DNA of 64,000 bases from Escherichia coli (GTDB lineage: Bacteria > Pseudomonadota > Gammaproteobacteria > Enterobacterales > Enterobacteriaceae), in NCBI RefSeq assembly GCF_009931435.1, contig NZ_CP043414.1. One strand, written 5' to 3'. This document shows, piece by piece, positions 52,642 to 54,911 of this stretch. A program made the translations under genes and the position numbers. The notes below the pieces were generated by a model that did not search any database, had not been told where the DNA came from, and worked only from the letters and a program-made list of their open reading frames with translations. How positions within the stretch are numbered: the stretch's first letter is position 1; each line of letters opens with the position of its first letter.

Positions 52642-54911
52642 GTGTGCCCGGAGTTCAGGGCGGGCATGGATGCTTAAATGAACCGCGAGTCTGTCTGGAA
52701 TATTGAACCGGTAACTCACGATGAGAAACCCAACAATCCCACCGGGTGTGACGGTGGAGAACCTGAGCGGCAGTGACCTGCGGCATGCCCGCAGGGTGAT
52801 GTAACCCGCTGACAACGGGGATTGAGGCGAGATCACTAAGCCGAGATGATCCTCAAGGTTAAGTACTGAAAGGCTGAAGAACATGAACCCGTTAATCCGC
52901 CTCTGTGGGTTGAAAACGTCACCACGGCCTACGTGATCTGACAGGCCGTGCAGGAGGAACTGGCAGTGATACGTAAGCACTGCCGGTCGAAGGTGTTTTG
53001 ACATGTATGCGAAACACCGGGGCAGCAGCGTCTATCACGCTTGCGTTGCTGACTTCTGCCAACTTGCGGCAAGCAAGGATAAAGAGTGCGACGGGCAGCC
53101 TCCTCAGTATGCCTGAGTCCAGGCAGGTAAACCGGGGAAGGTCAGCGACGGATGTTAAGGGGGCATGGCTCCGATGACGCGCTGGCTGGCGGAGCTTCCG
53201 TAGTAGTCCGCGATGGGGAAAGCCCATTACATGGCGAAGGGAAGCAGTTTGAATGTGTTTGCGACGTGAATTAACTGACCTAACGAGGTGAAGACCTTTG
53301 ATAATCAGCGAAATGCAACGCAAGCTTGCCACATGGGCAGTCACCGATCCGTCCCTACGGATTCAACGGCTGCTGCGTCTGATAACACAACCAGAATGGC
53401 TGGCTGAAGCGGCGCGGATCACGCTTTCATCAAAGGGGGCCCATACCCCCGGCGTTGATGGCGTGAACAAAACAATGCTACAGGCCAGACTGGCTGTTGA
53501 GCTGCAAATCCTCAGGGATGAATTACTCTCAGGCCACTACCAGCCCTTGCCCGCCAGACGGGTTTACATCCCTAAAAGCAACGACAAACTGCGACCACTG
53601 GGTATCCCCGCGTTGCGGGATCGTATTGTTCAGCGGGCCATGCTGATGGCGATGGAGCCGATATGGGAGAGTGATTTTCATACGCTCTCATATGGCTTCC
53701 GGCCTGAGCGCAGTGTCCACCACGCTATCCGCACGGTGAAATTACAGCTCACAGACTGTGGTGAAACCCGGGGACGCTGGGTGATTGAAGGCGACCTGTC
53801 CAGTTACTTCGACACCGTACATCATCGACTGCTGATGAAGGCTGTACGCCGCAGGATCAGTGACGCACGTTTCATGACTCTGCTGTGGAAAACCATCAAG
53901 GCGGGACATATCGATGTCGGTCTCTTTCGGGCGGCCAGTGAAGGTGTGCCACAGGGCGGTGTTATATCGCCGCTATTATCGAACATCATGCTGAATGAGT
54001 TCGATCAATACCTGCATGAGCGCTACCTGAGCGGGAAAGCCAGAAAAGATCGGTGGTACTGGAATAACAGTATCCAACGGGGCCGAAGTACGGCGGTCAG
54101 AGAAAACTGGCAGTGGAAACCCGCGGTGGCGTACTGCCGCTATGCCGATGATTTTGTCCTCATCGTCAAAGGCACCAAAGCACAGGCGGAAGCCATCAGG
54201 GAGGAGTGTCGGGGTGTGCTCGAAGGCAGTCTGAAACTCAGGCTGAACATGGATAAGACTAAAATCACCCATGTTAATGACGGCTTTATCTTTCTGGGGC
54301 ACAGGATCATTCGCAAACGCAGTCGTTATGGCGAGATGCGAGTGGTCTCAACGATCCCGCAGGAGAAAGCCAGAAACTTCGCCGCATCGCTGACAGCACT
54401 GTTATCAGGCAACTACAGTGAAAGCAAAGTCGATATGGCTGAACAACTCAACCGAAAACTGAAAGGCTGGGCCATGTTCTATCAGTTCGTTGATTTTAAG
54501 GCCAAAGTCTTCAGTTATATCGACCGTGTCGTGTTCTGGAAGCTGGCTCACTGGCTGGCCCGCAAATACCGTACAGGTATCGCTTCCCTGATGAGGTGGT
54601 GGTGTAAATCACCGAAACCGGGTCAGAGCAAAACGTGGGTTTTATTTGGTAAAACCAATCACGGCAAGCTCAGCGGCGAAATACTGTACCGGTTGGTGGG
54701 GCAAGGCAAGAAGCTGTTCCGCTGGCGGCTACCCGAAGGTAATCCCTATCTGAGGACGGAGACCAGAAACACGTATACATCGCGCTTTACAGAAGTGGCA
54801 ATGGCGTTCGCCAGCATTTAAATGGAGAGCCGGATGCGCTGAAAGGTGCACGTCCGGTTCGGGGAGGAGAGGCAGGGAAATAGTCCGACTACGCCCTGCC
54901 TCTTACTCTAC
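52642..54911 (+). mobile_element. bacterial group II intron
   Basis: Begins GTGTG (GUGYG), ends ...AC; domain V-like 34-nt hairpin at 54827-54860; encodes an RT/maturase ORF; excision restores an in-frame 296-codon orfB. Confidence 0.85.
53298..54821 (+). CDS. group II intron-encoded reverse transcriptase/maturase (IEP)
   Basis: 507-codon ORF (TTG start at 53298, or ATG at 53313); RT motifs PLGIPALRDRIVQRAM and YADDFV; maturase X-like C-terminus; no evident HNH/En domain. Confidence 0.85.
   Translation: MIISEMQRKLATWAVTDPSLRIQRLLRLITQPEWLAEAARITLSSKGAHTPGVDGVNKTMLQARLAVELQILRDELLSGHYQPLPARRVYIPKSNDKLRPLGIPALRDRIVQRAMLMAMEPIWESDFHTLSYGFRPERSVHHAIRTVKLQLTDCGETRGRWVIEGDLSSYFDTVHHRLLMKAVRRRISDARFMTLLWKTIKAGHIDVGLFRAASEGVPQGGVISPLLSNIMLNEFDQYLHERYLSGKARKDRWYWNNSIQRGRSTAVRENWQWKPAVAYCRYADDFVLIVKGTKAQAEAIREECRGVLEGSLKLRLNMDKTKITHVNDGFIFLGHRIIRKRSRYGEMRVVSTIPQEKARNFAASLTALLSGNYSESKVDMAEQLNRKLKGWAMFYQFVDFKAKVFSYIDRVVFWKLAHWLARKYRTGIASLMRWWCKSPKPGQSKTWVLFGKTNHGKLSGEILYRLVGQGKKLFRWRLPEGNPYLRTETRNTYTSRFTEVAMAFASI

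Follow-up and report, generated by a model that had tools for sequence, protein, structure and literature searches.

In the 64,000-nucleotide stretch of Escherichia coli DNA that we analysed (hereafter the window; assembly GCF_009931435.1, contig NZ_CP043414.1), an insertion sequence (IS) of the IS3 family, IS629, holds within its transposase gene orfB a group II intron of 2,270 nt, which intron we identify below as E.c.I4. The IS, the two orfB exons, the intron, and the open reading frame (ORF) that the intron carries for a reverse transcriptase (RT) and maturase lie as follows:

51847-55426, + strand: IS629 with its intron, 3,580 bp in total and 1,310 bp without the intron.
52224-52641, + strand: orfB exon 1, with 139 whole codons and the opening base of codon 140, from the translation.
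52642-54911, + strand: the complete E.c.I4, a group II intron of bacterial class A, 2,270 nt long, from the identity to published copies, the GUGUG start, and the AC end.
53298-54821, + strand: intact ORF for the RT and maturase (X) in domain IV, 507 aa from a TTG.
54912-55384, + strand: orfB exon 2, from the rest of codon 140 to the stop, as the in-frame continuation.

Read directly, exon 1 closes with ...GATTTTACTTACG, whose last base is 52641; the insert opens with GTGTGCCCGG at 52642 and closes with ...CTTACTCTAC at 54911, with a length of 2,270 nt; and exon 2 opens with TCAGCACATGG at 54912. An earlier interpretation made from the letters of the window (hereafter the sequence-only reading) had stated that the orfB frame breaks at 52641 and resumes at 54912, that the intervening 2270 bp start with GTGTG and end with CTAC, and that their removal rejoins the frame through a Val codon into a 296-codon OrfB; and our results agree with each of those statements. 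Both terminal motifs are read at 52642 and 54911, and the joining of 52641 to 54912 produces an unbroken OrfB of 296 codons (...WVADFTY-V-STWRGF...), with the Val codon at the junction split between a G and a TC. The joined 296-aa protein carries the HTH_21, rve, rve_3, and rve_2 domains, the Pfam rve domain beginning at residue 127, and exon 1 runs to just past the W-x-x-D-F-T-Y motif with which the integrase core begins. Furthermore, an empty-site probe of 200 nt, composed of 100 nt from each exon with the insert removed, aligned without a break over 200/200 nt to numerous E. coli records, where the sequence is annotated as an IS3 family transposase; thus, an uninterrupted orfB allele exists in other records, and the boundaries of the insert are therefore exact to the base. 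In RefSeq/PGAP the two exons at this locus appear as two separate pseudogenes ("incomplete; partial in the middle of a contig"), so that annotation pipelines treat the orfB halves as distinct incomplete pseudogenes although orfB is intact apart from the intron.

The group II introns of the Enterobacteriales were catalogued by Leclercq and Cordaux (2012; PMC3522654), who placed E.c.I4 copies at specific positions in the transposases of IS629, IS911, ISEc16, and ISEc31; and E.c.I4 and S.f.I1 are nearly identical members of bacterial class A, which is an endonuclease-less (En-less) class (Toro and Martinez-Abarca 2013; PMC3552965). We followed the naming rule of >95% nucleotide identity to a named intron (PMC3552965) and took the coordinates of the copy E.c.I4-2b of strain E24377A (NC_009801) from Table S3 of PMC3522654. 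In the alignment with E.c.I4-2b, whose exons in E24377A belong to a different, IS911-like IS, the window insert matched at 2,267 of the 2,270 nt, the 3 substitutions corresponding to an identity of 99.87%. For ten additional copies from the published genomes E24377A, IAI39, and 55989 the comparison showed a constant length of 2,270 nt and 5-6 differences from the window copy, and with respect to the 25 other copies that we fetched from public genomes the window intron had between 0 and 6 differences. Since only 3 of 2,270 nt differ from a published copy, and since the class A, En-less character matches, we identify the insert as E.c.I4, present as a complete copy at the point of the IS629 transposase gene into which it usually homes. 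With E.c.I4 as published the window copy shares the length of 2,270 nt, the En-less RT/maturase, and the site of insertion within the transposase genes of IS629 and other IS3-family elements; it differs at the allele level only: by the substitution G96D in the RT, by V15 in place of A, and by a few silent changes. S.f.I1 of Shigella flexneri, reportedly also of class A and with an intron-encoded protein (IEP) 99% identical to that of E.c.I4 (PMC3552965), is listed as lying in an IS629-like ORF (PMC2198948) and would thus be effectively the same element in another host species. The arrangement is accordingly already known, the intron, its class, the En-less protein, and the homing into the transposases of IS629, IS911, and related elements all having been published.

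The motifs by which the intron RNA would recognize its exons and splice are the following:

52636-52641, + strand: intron-binding site 1 (IBS1) CUUACG, the last 6 nt of exon 1, a perfect Watson-Crick complement of EBS1.
52829-52835, + strand: candidate exon-binding site 2 (EBS2), the hairpin-loop sequence GAGAUCA, which can form 7 pairs, 2 of them G-U, with UGAUUUU at positions -14 to -8 of the exon.
52972-52977, + strand: exon-binding site 1 (EBS1) CGUAAG, in the 9-nt loop of a 10-bp domain I hairpin.
54827-54860, + strand: domain V, 34 nt, with an AGC triad and a GAAA tetraloop, from Rfam Intron_gpII and two domain-V-only models.
54863-54909, + strand: helix of domain VI, from which the branch-point A54905 bulges out, from the RNA fold and the Rfam alignment.

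The ends of the insert, GUGUG at 52642 and CUAC ending at 54911, fit the group II consensus of 5' GUGYG and 3' AY. The Rfam family Intron_gpII (RF00029), which models domains V and VI, matched positions 54825-54911 with 64.9 bits (gathering score, 40; E = 1.9e-11). That match terminates exactly on the last base of the proposed intron, 54911. The 34-nt hairpin resembling domain V that the sequence-only reading had pointed out coincides with the match of the domain-V-only Rfam models at 54827-54860, 51 nt from the 3' end; and when positions 54815-54911 were folded, domain V was obtained together with a long domain VI helix bearing a single bulged A, A54905, at 7 nt from the 3' splice site, the z-score of that fold being -5.9. 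The EBS1 hairpin, ACUGGCAGUG-AUACGUAAG-CACUGCCGGU with AUACGUAAG as the loop, was recovered in both the minimum-free-energy (MFE) and the centroid folds, and EBS1 was the sole 6/6 Watson-Crick match to IBS1 within the first 600 nt of the intron; the predicted EBS1-IBS1 interaction is thus a textbook pair.

The intron ORF is situated between domains I-III and domain V, and in RefSeq the encoded protein starts at the ATG at 53313, with 502 aa, under the name ltrA (WP_001474883.1). The 507-aa ORF contains the Pfam domains RVT_1 (7e-34) and GIIM (1.3e-10) along with a YADD motif, whereas the Pfam scan found no domain after GIIM, so that neither a DNA-binding nor an HNH endonuclease domain is present. 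The NCBI curated equivalog for group II intron RT/maturases, TIGR04416, was matched with 338.4 bits against a cutoff of 300. In contrast, the retron and defence-RT models remained far under their cutoffs, with 52.6 bits versus 235 for retron St85, 51.5 versus 200 for Drt3a, 47.9 versus 390 for Drt2, and 19.5 versus 600 for a TIR-RT model. The closest relatives of the protein with solved structures were LtrA (5g2x, E = 2.1e-52), the GsI-IIC RT, and the E.r. IEP. LtrA, the protein of the Ll.LtrB intron of Lactococcus lactis, is the best of those structural relatives, and Ll.LtrB is the source of the general mechanism of splicing and retrohoming by a ribonucleoprotein; LtrA, however, has C-terminal DNA-binding and endonuclease domains, both of which are missing from the window protein, and Ll.LtrB is a IIA intron of the mitochondrial-like class in a relaxase gene, whereas the window intron belongs to class A and sits in an IS transposase. 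Consequently, the proposal of the sequence-only reading that a group II intron encoding an RT/maturase is nested in the transposase gene holds, on the grounds of the RT family (RVT_1, GIIM, and TIGR04416 above its cutoff), domains V and VI, the branch-point A, the EBS1-IBS1 complementarity, and the 99.87% identity to the curated E.c.I4; and of the refuting outcomes that it had listed, none that sequence analysis could address was observed.

The host element is delimited by these additional features:

51844-51846, no strand: left target-site duplication, CCA, flanking the IS end.
51847-51871, + strand: left terminal inverted repeat of IS629 (TGAACCGCCCCGGAAATCCTGGAGA), matching the reverse complement of the right end at 22/25 positions.
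51901-52227, + strand: IS629 orfA, 108 aa, intact, from the ORF list.
52182-52298, + strand: ALIL pseudoknot, the IS3-family signal for programmed -1 frameshifting, in the orfA/orfB overlap, from Rfam RF01497 at full length.
55402-55426, - strand: right terminal inverted repeat of IS629, 22/25 match with the left end.
55427-55429, no strand: right target-site duplication, CCA, flanking the IS end.

The joined 1,310 bp had a contiguous identity of 99.1% to features annotated as "IS3 family IS629" in Stx phage records, and at the same locus in other strains RefSeq designates the exon-1 fragment an "IS3-like element IS629 family transposase"; therefore, of the "IS629-like" host in the sequence-only reading the assignment to the IS3 family stands, while the qualifier may be dropped, the element being IS629 itself. 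The ALIL pseudoknot scored 117.8 bits against a gathering score of 50. At the corresponding position of NZ_CM171611 (L003) we found an IS-less site identical to the predicted empty site, CCA being present once, which identity demonstrates the insertion of IS629 with its 3-bp duplication. An intron-less allele of this particular insertion was also sought, with a query composed of the flank, the left part of the IS, and the exon junction, but no contiguous full-length match was obtained among 5,426 complete E. coli genomes, the best matches being IS629 copies at nearby but different positions, such as the one in L003. The intron may accordingly have arrived after IS629, or a ready IS629::E.c.I4 composite may have transposed here.

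The genes at the locus are ordered as yeeA, tmaR/yeeX, a gene of the EutP/PduV family, IS629::E.c.I4, an IS110 remnant, and the CP4-44-type cbtA/cbeA; and the whole neighbourhood of 10.3 kb is 99.9% identical to the finished chromosome of E. coli 504239 and to other strains, 67-1 and CD45 being further carriers of the locus. The EutP/PduV-family gene (51324-51689, - strand) has its start codon 158 bp from the left end of IS629 (51847), which falls upstream of it and inside the likely promoter region of that gene. Directly downstream of IS629 is a truncated IS110-family transposase remnant (55543-55932, - strand), beyond which fragments of DUF957 and DUF5983 genes, and the cbtA/cbeA toxin-antitoxin pair belonging to a CP4-44-type prophage remnant make that region a hotspot of mobile-element debris. 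Farther off in the window, a low-GC block (0.32-0.35) at 20001-28000 follows a JUMPstart element (20566-20604) and is presumably an O-antigen gene cluster, which block, together with a histidine operon leader at 40112-40235 (- strand), fits the usual rfb-gnd-his-sbmC-yeeX region of E. coli. Other Rfam matches at the gathering level—the REP-derived nucleoid-associated RNA naRNA4 at 9451-9521 (- strand) and the algC RNA at 9608-9657 (+ strand)—are unrelated to the intron.

Counted at a coverage of at least 80%, E.c.I4 was present in 1,873 of the 5,426 genomes, mostly with an identity of at least 99%, and in 1 to 20 copies per carrier genome, on chromosomes as well as plasmids; its ORF carries the annotation ltrA, which RefSeq applies in thousands of genomes. 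The exact 5' junction between IS629 and the intron was found in 1,790 records from 1,446 genomes, or roughly a quarter of the total, and occupied and unoccupied IS629 sites coexist in one strain, where an empty-site match (H34) stands beside an intron match (H1). To this survey we added a sample of 26 intron copies, consisting of the window copy and the 25 fetched from public genomes. In all 26 a single base separates the intron from the Tyr codon of W-x-x-D-x-T-Y, at a depth of 13 residues in the rve core, the hosts being IS629 (ADFTY/V), an IS911-like element (GDVTY/I), a third IS3 relative (GDITY/I), and chimeras. Since the target DNA encodes a conserved motif of the catalytic core, the range of several IS as hosts is explained, and IS629, with 6/6 pairing to EBS1, is the best-matched among them. 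The conservation of the IBS2 region among the hosts is confounded by that of the Asp codon. As to the chimeras, the host in E. coli 55989 (L007) has a 5' exon of IS629 and a 3' exon of IS911, which hybrid was noted in Table S2 of PMC3522654, and the one on plasmid p504239_101 (L014) is the converse, with an IS911-like 5' exon and an IS629-like 3' exon; their composition is consistent with homologous recombination across intron copies.

Introns that are identical over 2,270/2,270 nt reside in IS629, in an IS911-like element, and in a third IS3 relative, at no fewer than four loci and always at the same codon. The window copy bears the substitution G96D in RT motif 1 (IPKSN-D-KLRPLGIP; window position 53584, codon 96 of the 507-aa IEP), whereas Gly occupied position 96 in 11 of 11 copies sampled from E24377A, IAI39, and 55989; the aligned residue is Gly in the GsI-IIC and E.r. 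RTs and is not Gly in LtrA. The fully identical copies H1, H4, and H8 are all at the window locus, and an exact-protein lookup located the D96 protein elsewhere as well: in the IS911-like host (L021, L025), in the third host (L023), and in an IS629 variant near zinT (L027), two of those D96 copies being second copies in genomes that also carry the window locus. We had considered G96D as the mark of a dead copy confined to this locus, but that possibility was rejected upon finding the identical allele in other hosts and at other loci; the substitution is not obviously inactivating. From the distribution of these sequences we infer that the D96 allele has spread recently, either by retrohoming—possibly with help in trans—or by gene conversion. 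One chromosomal IS911-like::E.c.I4 locus, on the polysaccharide deacetylase / fecCD side, has G96 in two instances (L002, L015) and D96 in two others (L025, L021); such a mixture at one locus hints that intron copies have converted or replaced one another and is less readily explained by vertical inheritance alone.

On the + strand of the window the GC skew was positive in 13 of 16 bins, which sign makes the sense strand of the intron the template of the lagging strand. That orientation is reportedly the one favoured by En-less introns such as RmInt1.

The insertion of IS629 with duplication of CCA and the presence of a sense-oriented E.c.I4 in orfB, at the normal homing site of the intron, are shown by the sequences; and we hold the account as a whole, in which the intron operates by the mechanism of its family, to be highly probable. 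The locus is a three-level nest of mobile DNA. IS629 transposed between the EutP/PduV-family gene and the IS110 remnant, at the edge of the CP4-44-type prophage remnant; and its orfB contains the full-length E.c.I4 in sense orientation, with one base between it and the D-F-T-Y codons at the head of the DDE integrase core. According to the family pathway, the IS629 transcript would then contain the intron, and the RT/maturase would be translated from domain IV and bind the RNA; EBS1 (CGUAAG) would pair with IBS1 (CUUACG), the branch-point A54905 would attack the 5' splice site, and a lariat-protein particle would be released. That particle would be expected to reverse-splice into DNA wherever another transposase gene of the IS3 family has this sequence, and then to be copied to DNA, with priming presumably from the nascent lagging strand at the replication fork, as in RmInt1, because the intron protein has no endonuclease domain. 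In this manner one intron could colonize IS629, IS911-like elements, and other IS3 relatives through a target located in a conserved catalytic motif, and the transposase OrfAB would be made solely from spliced mRNA.

The chief alternative is that the intron, albeit complete, is a static relic: an inactive G96D allele, inherited vertically together with this IS629 copy, that has permanently inactivated the IS. In accordance with that view, none of the 11 sampled copies has G96D, and the GsI-IIC and E.r. RTs bear Gly in that position; the search of the 5,426 genomes yielded no allele of this IS insertion that lacks the intron; and strains isolated in India, in Saudi Arabia, and in China share identical copies at this locus, a distribution compatible with vertical descent. 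The same D96 protein and 2,270/2,270-identical intron are nevertheless found at unrelated loci in the IS911-like element, the third IS3 relative, and another IS629 variant, some D96 copies being second ones within genomes that carry the window locus; LtrA does without Gly at the aligned position; the ORF and all the ribozyme motifs are intact; and even an RT-defective copy could still be mobilized in trans. We therefore consider the inert relic unlikely. The chance is negligible, in turn, that the IS is interrupted by a retroelement other than an intron (a retron, a defence RT of the DRT/Abi kind, or a free-standing RT that is group II-like) whose intron-like ends are coincidental: the weak, sub-threshold NCBIfam matches to retron St85, Drt3a, and Drt2 are those to be expected of any RT domain. 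The sequence-only reading had named a grouping of the RT with retrons or other non-intron RTs as an outcome that would tell against it, and those models reached only 19-53 bits against cutoffs of 200-600, whereas TIGR04416 passed and the GIIM maturase domain is present. In addition, domain V/VI ends at the junction, EBS1 and IBS1 are complementary, the frame is exactly restored once the insert is taken out, and the empty site occurs in other records; the domain V/VI match, GIIM, the empty site, and the RT model scores together refute that explanation. A mis-joining of repeats into a chimeric assembly deserves equally little credence: IS elements and introns are indeed multi-copy repeats able to confuse assemblers, but the same 5' junction recurs in the 1,790 records from 1,446 independently assembled complete genomes, and the identity of the 10.3-kb neighbourhood to a finished chromosome extends to 99.9%, which recurrence and identity refute an artefact.

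With respect to the explanation that we prefer—an E.c.I4 at its homing site in a transposed IS629, acting by the family mechanism—a number of points weigh against it. All the steps of the mechanism, the splicing and mobility of this copy included, are inferred from the group II family pathway; for lariat splicing and retrohoming the evidence is at the level of the population, namely identical copies in multiple hosts and at multiple loci. The substitution G96D, in a position of RT motif 1 that is usually Gly, could weaken the RT, and gene conversion instead of retrohoming could account in part for the identity of copies between loci. The EBS2 assignment is ambiguous because AAGGUCA at 53138 scores the same as GAGAUCA at 52829. 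Moreover, the IS911-like and third hosts are mismatched to EBS1 at -1 and -5, so that RNA pairing is insufficient by itself for the choice of target, and contacts by the protein or a tolerance of mismatches must contribute. As regards the covariance-model search across the insert that the sequence-only reading had suggested as a check, domains V and VI were matched in Rfam, but the scan at the E-value threshold gave no family match for domains I-IV; and the MFE fold of 52642-53300 (659 nt), though multi-helical, was only modestly better than the folds of shuffled sequences, with a z-score of -2.0. The delimitation of domains I-III is consequently based on thermodynamic folding and on the 99.87% identity to a curated intron. 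Finally, the strand bias is a single case with a 50% prior and counts for little.

That expression of the transposase should depend on the intron follows logically from the anatomy of the locus, and this dependence, which the sequence-only reading had also put forward, would be formally correct, although not new. The best-studied analogue, the intron RmInt1 within ISRm2011-2 of Sinorhizobium meliloti, is likewise En-less, has its homing site in an IS transposase gene, and must be spliced for the transposase to be made (PMC3035460, PMC4238363); its exon ligation in vivo amounts to about 0.07%, and the authors proposed that introns of this kind limit the spread of the host IS (PMC3035460). The two systems differ in that RmInt1 is a class D / IIB3 intron in another IS family and another bacterium, whereas E.c.I4 is of class A; and RmInt1 has been the subject of direct biochemical and genetic evidence, whereas our literature search found none for E.c.I4, in the form of measurements of either splicing or transposition. 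Because this analogue splices at only 0.07%, the splicing yield of E.c.I4 is probably very low as well, and the intron would most likely act as a brake on this IS629 copy, with silencing a more likely practical outcome than regulated expression.

As a discovery the locus is of little importance, since both the intron, of which the window has an ordinary intact copy, and its homing site have been published. Intron-bearing IS copies constitute 3.6-kb repeats able to recombine. We think it improbable that the splicing of E.c.I4 in vivo is efficient, or conditionally regulated, enough to switch the transposition of an intron-bearing IS629 on and off. If that were nonetheless the case, the intron would be an RNA-level regulator of an IS and not a simple parasite or silencer; such regulation would matter most for the IS629 host, whose IBS1, unlike that of the IS911-type hosts, matches EBS1 perfectly; and this perfectly matched host would provide a natural system for measuring whether the splicing of a class A intron permits the expression of a transposase.

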